Position numbers and translations under genes: made by a program. A DNA stretch of 64,000 nucleotides from Myxococcota bacterium (GTDB taxonomy: Bacteria > Myxococcota_A > UBA9042 > PHBI01 > JAWLBL01): the NCBI GenBank assembly GCA_041687695.1, contig JAWLBL010000004.1, positions 192,001 through 256,000 on the forward strand, written 5' to 3'. Numbering within the stretch: the first letter of the stretch is position 1; each line of letters starts with the position of its first letter. Shown in pieces: positions 2,743-8,652 of the stretch. Under the pieces are notes generated by a model that was not told the origin of the DNA, made no database searches, and was given only the letters and a program-made list of their open reading frames with translations.

Positions 2743-4764
2743 GTGGCGCGCCTCGGGGCCCTGCTGGCGCTCGCGCTGACCCTGGCGTCGCCTGCGGCGC
2801 GCGCCTTCGACTACCTCGAGCACGCCTACTTCGCCGACCGCGCCTGCTACGAGGCCCAGCGCCGCCTCGCGCCCCTCGTGACCCCCGCGCGCCCCGACGT
2901 CGTCGCCCGCTACCTCGCCCTCGCGCTCGCCTGTCCCGAGCGCTGGGACCGCCCGTACTGCGCGGACGACCTCAAGCAGGCCGAGGCCGGCCTCAACCGC
3001 CTCGAGGCCCCGCCCGCCGCCAGCGGCGACCACGCCCTCACCCTGGGCGACTTCAGCGCCCTGGTCGACCACCTCGCCTGGTTCGGCCCGGTCGGCGGCT
3101 TCCCACGCGCCCGCCAGCCGGGCCTCACCGCCGAGGTCCTGGCCCTGCTCGGCGCCCCCACCACCTCCGGCGGCCTCATCGAGGACGTCGCCGAGGAGGC
3201 CTGCGACAGCGGCGTCGCCGTCCCCTGGGACCGCGTCGAGCACGACGTCCGCAGCGCCCTCGCGGCCTCGGACGCCAGCGGCGCGCCCGTCGCCGTCCCG
3301 CCCGCGCTGCTCGCCCCCAACCGCCGCGCCAGCCCCCACGCCGGCCCCGTCGACCCCGCCGCGCTCCTGTCCTTCAACAACCCCCACTACCTCGACCTCA
3401 AGCTCCACGGCGACGACCACTTCGGCGTCCGCGCCTTCGGCGCCTGGACCGGCTACCACACCGCCGCCCGCGTCATCGCCGCCAGCCGCTGCCAGGACGT
3501 CCTCGCCGTCGACGCCGACCTGCTCGAGGACCTCGCCGACGGCCTCCCCGCCTTCGCCCGCGTCGACTTCGACGACCTCGCGCCCGCCGAACGCGCCCGC
3601 CAGGGCTGCCTCCTCCTCGCCGAGCGCGTCCGCCGGCGCCTGCTCGACTGGCGGCGCCGCGCCGAGCCCGCCCTCACCGCGCCGGCCGCCCCCTTCCTCG
3701 ACGCCTTCGCCGACGGCCCCGCCACCACCGAGGAGGCGCTGCTGCTCGAGCACGTCGTGACGGCCCTGATGGCCGTGGTCTGGGAGGGCGGAGGGCTCCA
3801 CTTCCTCCAGGACGGCCTCTCCGGCGGTCACCTGCGCACCGACCCGACCTCGCGCGCCGGCCTGGGCGAGATCCGCTACGCCCACGACACCGACGGCCAG
3901 TTCGGCCTCTCGGCCGTCCTCACCACGGCCGCCGGCCACGCGCCGTTCGTCGCCTACGGGGACGGCTTCCTGCTCGGCCGCCCCACCGGCGCGCTCGACA
4001 CCTGCGTCTGGGATCGCTTGGGCGACGCGGGTCAGCCGGACGTCACGGCCTGCCTGGTCCAGCACCAACGCGGGCTGCTGGTCGCCCTGGGGGCCGCGAG
4101 CCTGGTCGACTGGGCCCTGGGCGGCGTGCTGCAGGCGCCTCGCGCCGCCGCCGACGGCTGCTCGACGCCGACCGACGCCCCGCACGCCTTCGTTTGCCGC
4201 TTCCTGCCCCTGCGCGCCGTCGCGGCCGCGGGCTACGAACCCCAGGGCCCGCCGCCCACCGAGCTGGCCGAGGGCACCCTGCCGACCCCGCCGCCTCCCT
4301 TCGCCTACCAGTCGCTGTTGACCGTCCTGGCGGCCGACTTCGGCGGCGACGGCGTGCAGGCTGGCGCGCGCCTGGTCTTCCTGAGCGAGCTCGACGATCT
4401 GGCCAACTGGATGTCCAGCTGGCACTTCGGCCTGCTCACGACCCAGGGCGTGCGCCGCAGCGAGCTGCTGGCCGAGTTCTCCTTCATGTTCCACTGGCGC
4501 TGGGCCGCGCGCTTTCTGGTCAACGCCGGCCCCGTCCTGCACGCCGGCTGGCGCGGCTTCGGCGACGACGTGTCGACCTTCGTCGGCCTCGGCCCCAGCG
4601 TCGGCCTCACCTTCCTGCCGGAAGGCTGGACCAAGATCCCGCTCGAGGCGACCTTCAGCCTGCGCCTGCCCGTGACGCTGCTCGACAGCCGCTTCGGCGC
4701 GGCGGACGGCGTGCGCATCGAGGGCTGGTGGTTCGAGATCGGCGTCGGCCTGGCCTTCATGTGA
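2743..4764 (+). CDS. Secreted protein with a Zn-dependent phospholipase C/P1-nuclease-like domain and a C-terminal beta-strand-rich (barrel-like) domain
   Basis: Signal peptide ending ARA, then FDYLEH; HFLQDGLSGGH (HxxxDxxxxxH); HDTD; C-terminus has alternating hydrophobic strands ending FEIGVGLAFM. Confidence 0.6.
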   Translation: MARLGALLALALTLASPAARAFDYLEHAYFADRACYEAQRRLAPLVTPARPDVVARYLALALACPERWDRPYCADDLKQAEAGLNRLEAPPAASGDHALTLGDFSALVDHLAWFGPVGGFPRARQPGLTAEVLALLGAPTTSGGLIEDVAEEACDSGVAVPWDRVEHDVRSALAASDASGAPVAVPPALLAPNRRASPHAGPVDPAALLSFNNPHYLDLKLHGDDHFGVRAFGAWTGYHTAARVIAASRCQDVLAVDADLLEDLADGLPAFARVDFDDLAPAERARQGCLLLAERVRRRLLDWRRRAEPALTAPAAPFLDAFADGPATTEEALLLEHVVTALMAVVWEGGGLHFLQDGLSGGHLRTDPTSRAGLGEIRYAHDTDGQFGLSAVLTTAAGHAPFVAYGDGFLLGRPTGALDTCVWDRLGDAGQPDVTACLVQHQRGLLVALGAASLVDWALGGVLQAPRAAADGCSTPTDAPHAFVCRFLPLRAVAAAGYEPQGPPPTELAEGTLPTPPPPFAYQSLLTVLAADFGGDGVQAGARLVFLSELDDLANWMSSWHFGLLTTQGVRRSELLAEFSFMFHWRWAARFLVNAGPVLHAGWRGFGDDVSTFVGLGPSVGLTFLPEGWTKIPLEATFSLRLPVTLLDSRFGAADGVRIEGWWFEIGVGLAFM

Positions 4765-4804
4765 CCGCGGCGCTGGCCGACGCGTGACCGTGGCGCTGGC
4801 CGAC
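4761..4804 (+). repeat. Short tandem duplication (23-bp unit, ~2 copies) spanning a stop codon
   Basis: GTGACCGCGGCGCTGGCCGACGC followed by GTGACCGTGGCGCTGGCCGAC. Confidence 0.7.
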
Positions 4805-4940
4805 CGGCCAGGACGGCCAGCCAGCGCCTCGATGCACATCCCTTCGGCCGGAACGCGCCAGGGACGTCGCGGCCTCTCGGTGACCGACGCGCCAGGGACG
4901 CCGGCCGTTGCCCACGCGAGGGCCAGGTCCTCGCGTGCGC

Positions 4941-4975
4941 AAAACAAAAACCCGAACGGCCGAGGCCATCCGGGT
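4941..4975 (-). terminator. Rho-independent terminator on the minus strand
   Basis: Minus strand reads ACCCGGATGGC-CTCG-GCCGTTCGGGT then TTTTGTTTT. The 11-bp stem has two G-U pairs that would be A-C mismatches on the plus strand. Confidence 0.8.
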
Positions 4976-7197
4976 CTTTGGGGTTGACGAGCACAGCCCT
5001 GTGGGGTGTTCCCCTTCGAAGGGTCTCACGGCCTCCCAGCTGCCACGCCGATGTCACCATCGTCGCGGCCTCCTCTCATCGCGTTGGGCTCGACTTCAGA
5101 GTCTCGGGGTGCCTGCCTGGCGCCGCATGGGTTGAGCGCGCCCACCATGGCCTTGGAGCGAGCTCCGGCCTTCGTGGTCTGCAGCAGGTCACCTGGCGCC
5201 GATGAGGGCTCTCACCGTCGCCGTCCTCTCTTGTCGTTGGCCTCGCGTTCAGAGTTTGACCAGAAGCGTGTGTCCATGGCTCGTGACCTCGTCCTCACGA
5301 CCGTCACGATCCTCGCGTTCCCTTCCGTGCCGGCGCGGACGCCGACTTCCTCCATCTCTCTGACGACCCACCAGCTCGCGGAACCCGGGCTGCCGCCTCC
5401 GGCCCTCCCTGTCGGGAGCGCCGCGCCGTCGGCCAGGCCTCGAGGCGAACCTCTCGGCGTGTCCATCGGGCACGAGGCGAAGAACCAGGCGCCAGCGGAG
5501 TGCCTCGTGGCGCTCCGTGGGCGTCCGCTCGGGGGTCAGACGGCCGACGCGCGTCTCGGGTGGCGATCGACCCTCACAGCGTGAGCGCTGCGAGCGTACG
5601 ATCGAGACCCATGACATCGCGACGGGGTGGTGCGACCTAGGTCGCCTCCGCCATCGTCCGACTCGAGCGAGCTCCCGTCGGAACAGCTCCTCGCGTCCTC
5701 TCGCGCGCCTCGCAGGGGTGGGTCGGGGAGACCCCGCACCACCGTGTCCCGGTCAGACCGGGAGGCCGTGGAGACCACGTCCTCCTTGCCCTCCGCCCTC
5801 GCACCGACCAGCCGCGGAGCGGTGGTTCGATGGTCGAGCGCTCGGGCCTCGCGGACGTCTCCGTCCACGAGCGGCGTCGCCCTCCGACTTCAGCCTGCGA
5901 ACCACGCTCGGTGACCGCCAGGGCCCACCCGAAGGCGAACCGTGACGACCCGCGCGTCCCCTCGTGACCCCGCCGAAGCGGGATCCCCCATGACGCTCTC
6001 GACCGAACCGCCCGCCTCCCGGAGGAGACCCCGTCACTGCCTTGCGAGCAGGGGCGGGTGGCGACTCGAGCCTCGGACGAGCCTCGTGGGTCGATGGGAC
6101 CTGCCGACCAGAGCGCCGCCGCCGCGCCGGGACGAGTCCCGGGAGGCGATGCCGCGCTGGGCGACCGAGGAAGGACCGGCGAGCCGGGCCTTCGTGTCCG
6201 CGAACCGAAGCCATCGTGCGCTGCCTACCGAGCGTCCGAACCGTGGAGCCGTGGCGTCCGAGGGGAAACCCCCCGGCCGTTGCTCCCGCCGGATCGGCCG
6301 TCGACGAAGGCAGCCTGACGCGTGACGCATGCGAGCCGTCGATTGCTTCGGGGCCGGCGGACCGAGGTCCGCGTGGCCCCGCCGGGCCCTCGCCATCGTC
6401 CGGGTCTCCCCGGGGTCGCTGGCCAAGGCCGACGCGTGGAGCGGTCGAAGCGGCTGTCGCCGGTTCGAGCCGCGTTCCATGGGCTCGTGTGTCGCATTGA
6501 TGAGAGATGTCGGGCCGGAAAGGGTCGCTCGAATCGATCCGCTCGCGCGGACGCATCGGAGCCGGACGCCCTCCCTTGGGGTTTGGTACCCTTCGACGCT
6601 TGCGGAAGCGAGCAGCGACCCACACCGGGGTTGCCTCCCCCGGCTGAGCTGCGCCTTCAGGTTTTCTCAACCTCTTGACGCCTTGTTCCGCTCGCGACCT
6701 CTCCGGCCTTGTTTCATGCCGGTAACGCCCTTGGGCTTTGCACCTTCAGAGGGTTTCCCCCACCGGTAGCGGGCCTCGCCTCTCGACGACGCCTGCCCTT
6801 CTTGCCGTTCGAATGCCCGGATTCGACAGTAGCCAGGATACCGCTGTCCTCCGTGCCTCGACTTCAAGGATTTACGCATCCGATGGGTCCGTACCGTTCG
6901 GGCCGGTGTTACCCGGGCTCCGAAGGCCGATCCTCTCCTGGCGTTCACCTCTTCGAGGTGTTCCCCCCCTTGGCCTCGGCTTCATGTCTCCATGAAGCCT
7001 CCTCTCTTGGGCTTCGACACGACGCTGAACGGCGAACCGTCCATCGTCGTATGTGCTCTTCAAAGTTTTAAAGAACCAAGGGAGTGGCTTGCCTCTTGCG
7101 AGTGCTGCCGACCTCCATGAGGTTCGTGTCCTCGTCGGTCCGCGCGAGGCGGGCCGTGTCGGACCTCCCTTGGGCCGCGCTCCCTGGCGTCAACCCT
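4941..7197 (-). ncRNA. Candidate very large (~2.2 kb) structured non-coding RNA of unknown family
   Basis: No ORF with recognisable motifs or the regular GC3 pattern of flanking genes. Bounded by a promoter-like element and a terminator. Terminal 9-bp complementarity (7188-7196 with 4981-4989), GNRA/UUCG hairpins on the minus strand, and a repeated internal module. Confidence 0.62.
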
Positions 7198-7203
7198 GAG
7201 GCG

Positions 7204-7233
7204 ATAGTGGATCGCCCGACGGAGCTGCCGCAA
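7204..7233 (-). promoter_or_regulatory. Putative sigma70-type promoter for the candidate RNA
   Basis: Minus strand TTGCGG (7233-7228), 18 nt, CACTAT (7209-7204). Predicted start ~7197, right at the 5' arm of the terminal stem. Weak consensus match on its own. Confidence 0.4.
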
Positions 7234-7257
7234 CCCGAATTTTCGGGGGGCGCCGGC

Positions 7258-7319
7258 TGTGGAAAACCAAGCTGTAGGGAAGTCGCGCACTTTCGCACCG
7301 TCTCCCCAAGTTGTCCACA
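7258..7319. promoter_or_regulatory. Two oppositely oriented DnaA-box-like 9-mers
   Basis: TGTGGAAAA at 7258-7266 (reverse complement TTTTCCACA fits TTWTNCACA) and TTGTCCACA at 7311-7319 (high-GC-type box). Confidence 0.45.
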
Positions 7320-7608
7320 GGAAAGCCACACGTCCGCGCGATCGGCCTGCGCCGCACCCGGTGGCCGCGAGAGCATCGCAAGTGCCTGTTTTCACGTGCG
7401 ATCCGGGACGCGGCCCCGTGTCGCGCCGCAAAAGGGTGCCTCGGACGGCCACACGGGGCCGAAGGGCAGGGCGCGGACGCGGCGCCCTCGGGCGCGCTTC
7501 GGGGCGGGCGTTCGCGCGATGCCCACGCGCGATTGGCGTGATGGGGCGCCTGCGCGCGAAGCGCGTGATGGTTGACGGCGGAGGCGCGCGTCGCTACAGG
7601 CCAGCGCC

Positions 7609-8652
7609 ATGGACCTGCCCGGCTACCAGCTCGACGCGCTCCGCGTCCACCCCGGCCTCGTGCTCGCGCCCATGAGCGGCGTCACCGACTCGCCCTTTCG
7701 CCGCTTGGTCAAGGCGGCCAGCGGCGACGCCGTGGGCCTCGTCGTCAGCGAGTTCCTCTCGATCGAGGCGCTCACCCGCCGCGAGCTGCGCAGCATGGTC
7801 CGGCTGGCCTTCCACCCCGAGGAGCGGCCCGTCGGCATCCAGATCTTCGGCGCCGACCCGGTCAAGATGGCCGAGGCCGCCAAGATCGTCGAGGACGCCG
7901 GCGCGGATCTGGTCGACATCAACTGCGGCTGCCCGGCTCCCAAGGTCGTCAAGCGCGGCGGCGGCGCCGGCCTCCTCCGCACCCTGCCGGCGCTGGCCGA
8001 CATCCTGCGCGCCGTGGTCCCGGCGGTCTCGATCCCCGTCACCATCAAGATCCGCAACGGCTGGGACGAGCACACCATCAACGCCCACGACACCCTCGAG
8101 CTGGCGCAGGACTTCGGCGCGCGCGCGGTCGCGATCCACGGCCGCACCCGGATGCAGCTCTACCGCGGCGAGGCCGACTGGGACATCGTCGGCGCGCTCA
8201 AGCAGGCCTCGCGGCTGCCCATCATCGGCTCCGGCGACATCGCGACGCCCGCCGACGCCCGCCGGCGCCTGGCCGACACGGGCTGCGACGGCGTCATGGT
8301 CGGCCGGGGCGCCATCATGAACCCCTGGATCTTCCGCCAGGTCGCCGACGAGCTGGCCGGCCGCGCGCCCACGGTGCCGACCTGGCGCGACAAGATCGCG
8401 CTCCTCGAGCGCTACCGCCAGATGCTGACCGAGATCTACCCGCCCAAGGTCCTGCCGGGCCGGATGCGGATGATGCTCTCGCGCCTCATCAAGGGCTTCC
8501 CGGGCGCGGCCGAGGTCCGCCTGACCTGCGTCAAGATGGACGCGCCCGAGGCGATGCTGGCCACGCTGTCCGAGGCCTGCGAGCGCCTCGAGATCCTGGA
8601 CGCGCCGGCCGTCAGCGTAGACCCGCGCGCCGGCGTCGCCGAGGCGGCCTGA
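7609..8652 (+). CDS. dusB: tRNA-dihydrouridine synthase, DusB-like
   Basis: LAPMSGVTDSPFR, QIFG, DINCGCP, GGGAGLL, VTIKIR, IHGRT, GSGDI and GVMVGRGA motifs. Confidence 0.92.
   Translation: MDLPGYQLDALRVHPGLVLAPMSGVTDSPFRRLVKAASGDAVGLVVSEFLSIEALTRRELRSMVRLAFHPEERPVGIQIFGADPVKMAEAAKIVEDAGADLVDINCGCPAPKVVKRGGGAGLLRTLPALADILRAVVPAVSIPVTIKIRNGWDEHTINAHDTLELAQDFGARAVAIHGRTRMQLYRGEADWDIVGALKQASRLPIIGSGDIATPADARRRLADTGCDGVMVGRGAIMNPWIFRQVADELAGRAPTVPTWRDKIALLERYRQMLTEIYPPKVLPGRMRMMLSRLIKGFPGAAEVRLTCVKMDAPEAMLATLSEACERLEILDAPAVSVDPRAGVAEAA

Follow-up and report, generated by a model that had tools for sequence, protein, structure and literature searches.

Large bacterial RNAs and the locus compared

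Bacterial RNAs of great size and complexity are few, and each of them has brought new biochemistry. GOLLD, ROOL, and OLE are large, multi-branched RNAs that stand alone (PMC12286853, PMC5737381), and GOLLD and ROOL are described as consisting of a 5′ and a 3′ part that a variable linker connects and as forming cages that use kissing loops (PMC12286853). Here we analyze a 64,000-nucleotide stretch of DNA from a Myxococcota bacterium (assembly GCA_041687695.1, contig JAWLBL010000004.1, positions 192,001–256,000; hereafter the window, whose own coordinates we use), in which positions 4981–7197 of the minus strand are a free-standing gene of about 2.2 kb for a large folded non-coding RNA. This is a real and widespread RNA with an undescribed module present ten times over, and apparently an abundant one. 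It resembles GOLLD, ROOL, and OLE in being large, multi-branched, and free-standing, and GOLLD and ROOL in its two parts with a variable linker between them. Unlike these families, it has no Rfam match: no family matched the RNA when the window was scanned at the gathering score, and scans of 31 homologous loci (15 at E-values up to 1 and 16 at E-values up to 5) gave chance hits only. It further differs from GOLLD and ROOL in that no pseudoknot or kissing loop was found among the 22 helices called in 101 sequences, in that a tRNA scan of the window, which did not extend to the homologous loci, found none, and in its single partial match among 28 viral loci, with no match in phages or plasmids. 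It is also longer than ROOL (581 nt) and most GOLLD RNAs (over 800 nt), going by the sizes in the published texts, and is built of one repeated module. The MISL RNA, which has few long-range knots, falls in the same size class with 751 model positions. Its Rfam family, RF03079 (10.1101/2024.02.24.581671), gave no match in five RNA-bearing genomes at E-values up to 1, in a search run with no positive control, and none in the scans with all families. Judged by these model searches, the present RNA appears to be none of GOLLD, ROOL, OLE, or MISL.

A recent preprint (10.64898/2026.10.21.760802) nominated structured RNAs associated with PhoH2, published as 27 clusters (COMPASS database), with 13 clusters on the 3′ side of phoH2 and, as its lead case, a 357-nt Bacteroidota motif with phoH2 adjacent at 148 of 326 loci. 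As far as the text of that source describes them, these RNAs resemble ours in being long and structured, without family annotation, and placed 3′ of a PIN_4+PhoH gene where the two are adjacent; a conserved multistem structure without family annotation is found in the present RNA too. Ours differs in its length (about 1 kb in most homologues), in its ten modules, and in mostly lying apart from phoH2. The preprint text contains none of “Myxococc,” “Planctomycet,” “Gemmatimonad,” “internal loop,” or “DnaA,” and mentions no repeated loop. Our family may be one of the 13 clusters on the 3′ side, the comparison being one of text descriptions only. Among the flanks of 82 Bacteroidia phoH2 loci, 33 of which were searched with model R1, there was no profile match and no module cluster, and no published Bacteroidota RNA was recognized among these flanks. 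In the literature covered, chiefly open texts, with preprint figures and supplements and the supplement of PMC5737381 lying outside it, we found no description of this RNA or of its module.

Ten modules and their pairing partners

Each module consists of a helix a of 4 bp, a 3 × 3 internal loop of the form 5′-GNA-3′/5′-ANG-3′, and a helix b of 4 bp, and its strands are usually preceded on the 5′ side by AA. The sequence-only reading of the window had described a bipartite motif recurring at least eight times on the minus strand, in which every 5′ half belongs with the 3′ half that follows it. The repeat is real, and both halves of the eight copies (YYGAA for the 5′ one) are in place, except that in the copy at 5024–4998 the 5′ half is present while the 3′ half is off consensus and has no match. 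The count proved to be ten, two modules having been missed (6680–6652, in reverse order, and 5177–5142), and the rule of adjacent halves held for two of the eight copies (7065–7002 and 6869–6797) and failed for the other six, in which the 5′ half finds its partner at a distance, up to 1,560 nt off. In those same two copies, the hairpin-like insert reported between the halves separates truly paired neighbors. Of two suggested half-copies, the one at 7122–7112 is genuine and pairs with 6958–6948, while the one at 6474–6486 lies in a lineage-specific insertion and has no partner in the list made with our structure descriptor.

All ten modules lie on the minus strand, and those with distant halves number six. 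Module 1 joins the GNA strand at 6948–6958 to the ANG strand at 7112–7122; it has 8 of 8 pairs and the weakest covariation, because of a one-column shift between clades. Module 3 joins GNA 6741–6751 to ANG 6933–6943, module 5 joins GNA 6588–6598 to ANG 6726–6736, and module 7 reaches across the insertion from GNA 5011–5021 to ANG 6571–6581. Modules 8 and 9, with 8 of 8 pairs each, share two sides, the first at 5226–5254 (GNA 5254–5244, pairing with 5083–5073, and ANG 5236–5226, pairing with 5101–5091) and the second at 5073–5101. Three modules have neighboring halves in GNA-then-ANG order: module 2 (7002–7065; GNA 7065–7055 and ANG 7012–7002, with a hairpin between), module 4 (6797–6869; GNA 6869–6859 and ANG 6807–6797, again with a hairpin), and module 10 (5142–5177; 5177–5167 with 5152–5142). 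Module 6 (6652–6680) has its neighboring halves in reverse order, ANG 6680–6670 before GNA 6662–6652. These assignments come from covariation together with pair counts, and for module 10 from covariation. In the window itself, the assigned partners form 7–8 of 8 pairs against 4–6 of 8 for the neighbors. A four-way junction of neighboring modules was also considered and dropped, as both helices of each module covary with the distant partner.

The pairing scheme is carried by two sets of homologues. In 40 aligned sequences with a mean identity of 53%, from which the window was excluded, a scan for covarying columns gave the assigned partners 0.39–0.55 against 0.09 or less for all others at seven of the nine strands scored; the remaining two were one weak case at 0.03 and one scored a column out of register. 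In a second set of 62 new metagenome homologues, less than 90% identical to the first set and aligned by sequence alone, the assigned partner was best for all ten strands (0.17–0.37 against at most 0.00), although a pattern covering one module had served to select this set. The partner of each half in the ten modules is thus shown, and the helices of the modules are nested, as are all 22 helices called in the 101 sequences. No crossing helices of the pseudoknot or kissing-loop kind were found among them, in a test that invariant or self-complementary loops escape. Two-sided changes were seen at 30 of 34 core pairs, compared with 17.3 in shuffles, and core pairing stood at 91% in the assigned register against 33–49% in slid registers. 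Helix length is fixed: in the 40 homologues, positions 1–4 are paired in 92–98% of cases and the fifth position in 49% and 14%. Helix a has C-G as its outer pair in 354 of 400 modules.

The internal loop follows a rule of its own. Excluding modules with fewer than seven of eight helix pairs as likely misaligned, the opposed bases at its two outer positions are G·G or A·A in 359 and 346 of the 361 usable modules (out of 400) in the first set, and in 517 and 503 of the 522 usable modules (out of 620) in the second. All four combinations of G·G and A·A at the two outer pairs occur. Since expectations from pooled sequences overstate such an effect, we counted changes on a tree of the 101 sequences. 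G·G and A·A replace each other there at least 58 times, against 22 cases of mixed purines, of which 9 fall at a single position. In an unguided mutual-information scan, four of these loop pairs likewise came within the seven highest-ranked column pairs that lie outside called helices. The GNA strand has A or G as its middle base in 318 of 361 modules, and the middle base of the ANG strand is free. The loop of module 10 flips from GNA/ANG to ANG/GNA between clades of homologues. G·G and A·A are isosteric as a trans pair, and the two exchange in the Rev response element (RRE) of HIV-1. We infer that the outer purines form symmetric trans pairs and that the middle bases are pushed out. The module has in this a sharp, testable signature (G·G for A·A and the reverse) and could be studied alone as a short duplex. 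Elsewhere in the RNA, a hairpin at about 6720–6703 with a GAAA-containing loop has two loop-flanking positions that swap A·G with G·A (44 and 41 of the 101 sequences).

Chance is not a plausible source of the repeat. In 1,000 dinucleotide shuffles of 4940–7210, no shuffle reached the observed count of the short bipartite pattern (5 against a mean of 0.14), of YYGAAG (11 against 3.16), or of the strict 3′ half (4 against 0.04); the short bipartite pattern is absent from the plus strand and occurs 0.08 times per equal length genome-wide. Because these patterns had been shaped on the same region, the homologues and a scan of the genome are the stronger tests. We scanned the complete genome (7.97 Mb, cut into 62,682 overlapping 2,300-nt windows) with a structure descriptor in which halves are matched one-to-one, and three or more modules (up to seven) appeared at the RNA locus only. 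A scan without one-to-one matching gave two further clusters, which we rejected as Ala/Lys codon repeats inside open reading frames (ORFs). These lie in genes for proteins with long Ala/Lys repeats, whose DNA mimics the module (C8:142721–145411 and C11:52424–53500, both on the minus strand), one with a kinase-like start by eye. That the modules arose by internal duplication, as the earlier reading proposed, is plausible; self-comparison of the RNA gives just a weak second self-match (E-value 0.91). Its broader suggestion of a repeated RNA motif within a large modular RNA is supported by the covariation in homologues. The roles that it put forward for the RNA, a scaffold, a cage, or a protein sponge, are conjectural, and no kissing loop or pseudoknot of the sort on which the ROOL and GOLLD cages rely was found.

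Transcription, insertion and spread of the RNA family

The limits of the gene follow from the sequence, from the ends of contigs assembled from RNA libraries (at 7172–7189 and 4970–5018), and from two-part profile matches. A terminal helix (7196–7189 paired with 4988–4981) closes the RNA. Upstream lies a weak sigma-70-like promoter candidate at 7204–7233 of the minus strand (TTGCGG, 18 nt, CACTAT), picked by eye; a promoter scan returned nothing above threshold at 7233–7204, where this candidate scores below the cut-off, and the homologues have near-consensus promoters in the matching position. Downstream, an intrinsic terminator with a 12-bp stem and a T run occupies 4941–4975 of the minus strand, its inner part being called by a terminator scan and the rest read from the sequence.

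The stretch is present in 20 of 24 listed sequencing runs, and 16 of those 20 are RNA libraries. Four RNA runs from four studies yield contigs that span 4982–7188, 5018–7172, 4986–7179, and 4970–7072, with zero cover in the flanking bins 4303–4669 and 7239–7605. In a second set of runs, two more, one of them of unrecorded type, stop at 7189. In a probable DNA run, cover passes the terminator into the neighboring gene at a depth of 2–3. Runs with small word shares (X11–X20) were left out of this evidence. Contigs that cover the RNA and stop at its ends are a strong hint, though not proof, of a transcript of this span. In run X3, a contig lacks 109 bases of the insertion (5972–6080), one arm of a hairpin, which is probably a strain difference or a skip in reverse transcription. 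Three contigs fuse the 3′ part of the RNA to its 5′ part: one from run X2 (7172 to 5018), L200, and L210, the last with an exact junction of the terminal-helix ends. A circular RNA or template switching could give such contigs. As the three joints fall at three different places, we do not accept a circular RNA.

Overlapping ORFs of 100–300 codons do cross the region, as is expected at 70% GC, and one could ask whether the stretch codes for protein or repeats by chance. Compared with the window, near-identical strains carry indels of 1 and 2 bases at 5317, 5531, 5595, 5985, and 6587, which argues against coding, and the two-sided changes in core pairs and the poor pairing in slid registers stand against both versions of this idea. 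We regard it as refuted and give it practically no credence.

In homologues, the RNA is about 1 kb long and corresponds to 7195–6568 and 5261–4989 of the window, joined via a short linker. The difference in length is made up by a lineage-specific insertion of about 1.3 kb (5262–6560, minus strand), which is present in the RNA contigs, contains no module, and sits at the variable site of the family. This linker is a hot spot of growth, with 180–615 extra bases in several loci, 975 in L236, 1,266 in the window, and 2,531 in L244. In L244 (636–3199), L219, L236, and L194, the linker at this site measures 1 to 2.5 kb, which makes RNAs of up to about 3.5 kb. No homologue of the insertion was found among the collected loci or elsewhere in the genome. 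When its thirds were folded, z-scores against shuffles were −0.5, −1.1, and −3.6, so that two of the three fold no better than shuffles. Among 39 strain differences in the insertion, 4 are compensatory (0.3 expected) and 12 break pairs (16.6 expected), a weak sign that selection maintains pairing there.

The family reaches at least five named phyla and recurs as RNA-sized contigs in many environmental assemblies. Within the same order and class, blastn gave matches in 23 of 61 genomes, the window's own counted; three weak ones (L021, L023, and L024) were not confirmed by the profile. The profile confirms 36 of 119 pattern matches in named genomes, labeled Myxococcota or Deltaproteobacteria, Planctomycetota (mostly Phycisphaerae), Gemmatimonadota, Krumholzibacteriia, and Latescibacterota, and 118 of 120 metagenome matches. 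Among 80 listed metagenome contigs, 66 measure 1.0–1.3 kb, and most start and stop near the ends of the RNA. With a covariance model of the core, the RNA turns up in 28 of 151 genomes from the window's phylum, in up to four copies, in 17 of 121 Planctomycetota, and in 1 of 81 Gemmatimonadota (the seed alone); as just 19–36 candidates were scored per genome, misses in these counts are likely. The partial viral match mentioned above is an IMG/VR contig of 2,489 nt (L323), in which a 150-base piece of the RNA core (positions 1–150) is followed by unrelated sequence and which is possibly chimeric.

Genomic setting and possible roles

Two features recur beside the gene across phyla. Sites resembling TTWTNCACA, which we take to be the DnaA-box consensus, precede the RNA promoter. 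In the window, a perfect site lies at 7258–7266 of the minus strand, one of nine strict matches in the genome, and a motif search finds a second one with one mismatch at 7311–7319 of the plus strand. Counting sites with up to one mismatch, 36 of 51 loci have them upstream of the RNA (77 boxes against 14 in shuffles), compared with 5 of 48 downstream and with 4% of 1,500 windows upstream of ORFs in the window's genome. A later set (9 of 18 upstream against 0 of 19 downstream) and a further one (9 of 13 upstream, with 19 boxes, against 3 of 15) gave the same picture. We rejected the reading of these boxes as a replication origin, as dnaA lies on another contig here and 1.7–1.8 Mb away in two single-contig genomes. 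In those two genomes (G339 and G352, of 3.8 Mb), the RNA gene is about opposite dnaA. The second feature is a PIN_4+PhoH (PhoH2) gene. In 9 of 28 named genomes it is on the same strand and ends 234–466 bases before the profile match, and in one more it lies 2.5 kb upstream, giving 10 of 28 within 5 kb. These adjacent cases come from four named phyla and one unclassified record. One genome, G326 (L036), is unpublished and is among the ten PhoH2 cases and the 40 aligned sequences; no conclusion depends on it.

We tentatively favor, at slightly less than an even chance, a role in which the modules are putative repeated docking sites for one kind of protein and the RNA is a multivalent protein scaffold. 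The module is of fixed length in its ten copies and keeps its shape better than its bases, which suggests sites for repeated docking, and the G·G/A·A swaps together with the one flipping module point to a site read by its shape. Via its ten modules, the RNA would hold many copies of one protein on a scaffold, or act as a sink for them. Stem IIB of the RRE receives the Rev helix in a major groove that is widened by a trans G48-G71 pair next to bulged U72 (PMC4488727, PMC6649712), and in the parts of these sources that we compared, the RRE resembles our RNA in its trans G·G pair by a bulged base and in its several purine-rich loops that load copies of one protein. It differs in having one G·G pair, one G·A pair, and one bulge, where the present module has two like-with-like pairs, two middle bases, and ten copies. 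The likeness is an analogy of shape and not homology, by which the like-with-like purine pairs may be viewed as a doubled form of the groove-widening element. The parallel to sponge RNAs goes less far. RNAs of the CsrB/RsmZ type also repeat one motif in a stand-alone RNA, and their GGA motifs are in hairpin loops. In contrast, the purine-rich 3′ halves of our modules are helix-paired at the 92–98% given above, which makes CsrA binding unlikely.

PhoH2, a hexameric RNase-helicase in mycobacteria according to the text consulted (PMC7390352), is the best named candidate partner, a weaker suggestion that draws on gene order and on the independent nomination of PhoH2-associated RNAs in the preprint (10.64898/2026.10.21.760802). 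This ring-forming nuclease-helicase could be the bound protein, or else an enzyme that trims and turns over the RNA. Through the boxes, DnaA might tie transcription of the RNA to replication. Several points weigh against the scaffold and its candidate partner. No PhoH2 gene is adjacent in the 25 RNA-bearing genomes of the window's class in which both genes were placed, the window's own included, or in 35 loci with short flanks (0 of 19 further Planctomycetota loci and 0 of 16 in the window's phylum, with only about 1 kb of flank). PhoH2 is also present in 23 of 24 relatives where the RNA was not found, so that its presence or absence is uninformative. The geometry of the purine pairs is read from the exchange pattern alone, and the RNA-library contigs are silent on the strand, true ends, and level of the RNA. 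Finally, the free exchange of helix pairs, the AA conserved on the 5′ side of most helices, and several loops of the GNRA type would equally fit packing of RNA against RNA.

This last point leads to the main rival of the scaffold, folding or self-assembly by RNA alone, which we regard as possible though doubtful. Here the AA and the loop-middle purine would dock into C-G pairs of other modules and give a compact particle or a cage like those of ROOL and GOLLD. The AA or ANA 5′ of most helices, the prevalent C-G outer pair of helix a, and the purine at the middle of one loop strand but not the other all fit such docking, as do the 5′ and 3′ parts with their variable linker, a layout shared with GOLLD and ROOL (PMC12286853). 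However, the 101 sequences have no crossing helices, whereas the known cages use kissing loops, and a linker enlarged by 1.3 kb in the window and by 2.5 kb in L244, which can be longer than the RNA itself, hardly fits a closed cage. Scaffold and RNA-only assembly can both be true at once. It is conceivable, if on the unlikely side, that this class of RNA organizes the PhoH2 ring, or self-assembles, into a large particle under DnaA control, and is the long-sought RNA partner of PhoH2 in these phyla. If true, this would be a natural modular RNA nanostructure with a two-fold symmetric motif repeated ten times and a new class of giant bacterial RNA. In any case, the RNA offers a handle on the targets of PhoH2 proteins and a natural part for RNA design.

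Two other explanations carry less weight than the scaffold. Each module might bind a small molecule or a metal ion, perhaps a two-fold symmetric nucleotide, with the RNA storing or buffering the ligand. The pseudo-two-fold symmetry of the module and its ability to flip (module 10) would suit such a ligand, and purine-rich internal loops are common in aptamers; yet the G·G/A·A swaps, 58 at the least, alter the groups that a ligand would read, and no metabolic gene class recurs beside the RNA gene, which leaves this improbable. More doubtful again is the idea that the RNA belongs to a mobile or selfish element, or to the viroid-like circular RNAs, with modules that would serve its copying. The patchy spread over genomes, the multiple copies, and the three contigs that join 3′ to 5′ parts could be taken in this sense. 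Against it stand the RNA's own promoter and terminator, the three different places of the joints, paralogues that are about 70% alike, neighbors common to different genomes, the single transposase and absence of reverse transcriptase among 121 flanking ORFs scanned, and the nearly empty result from viral, plasmid, and phage sequences. We also rejected a replacement for a missing housekeeping RNA, as canonical RNase P RNA, 6S RNA, and tmRNA are all present elsewhere in the genome (signal recognition particle RNA lay outside this search).

In the window, the gene sits in the interval 4765–7608 between two plus-strand genes. The 673-amino-acid ORF at 2743–4764, convergent with the RNA, has no Pfam match and encodes a protein with a likely signal peptide; on the other side lies a dihydrouridine synthase gene (7609–8652), which is not a conserved neighbor among the loci of the family. 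Other neighbors of the RNA gene vary among loci. In seven loci of the window's class (L003, L005, L007, L010, L013, L017, and L019), the upstream neighbor is tolB, in either orientation. At L414, a leader between phoH2 and terC (2176–2369) resembles by eye what we take to be the yybP-ykoY manganese riboswitch.

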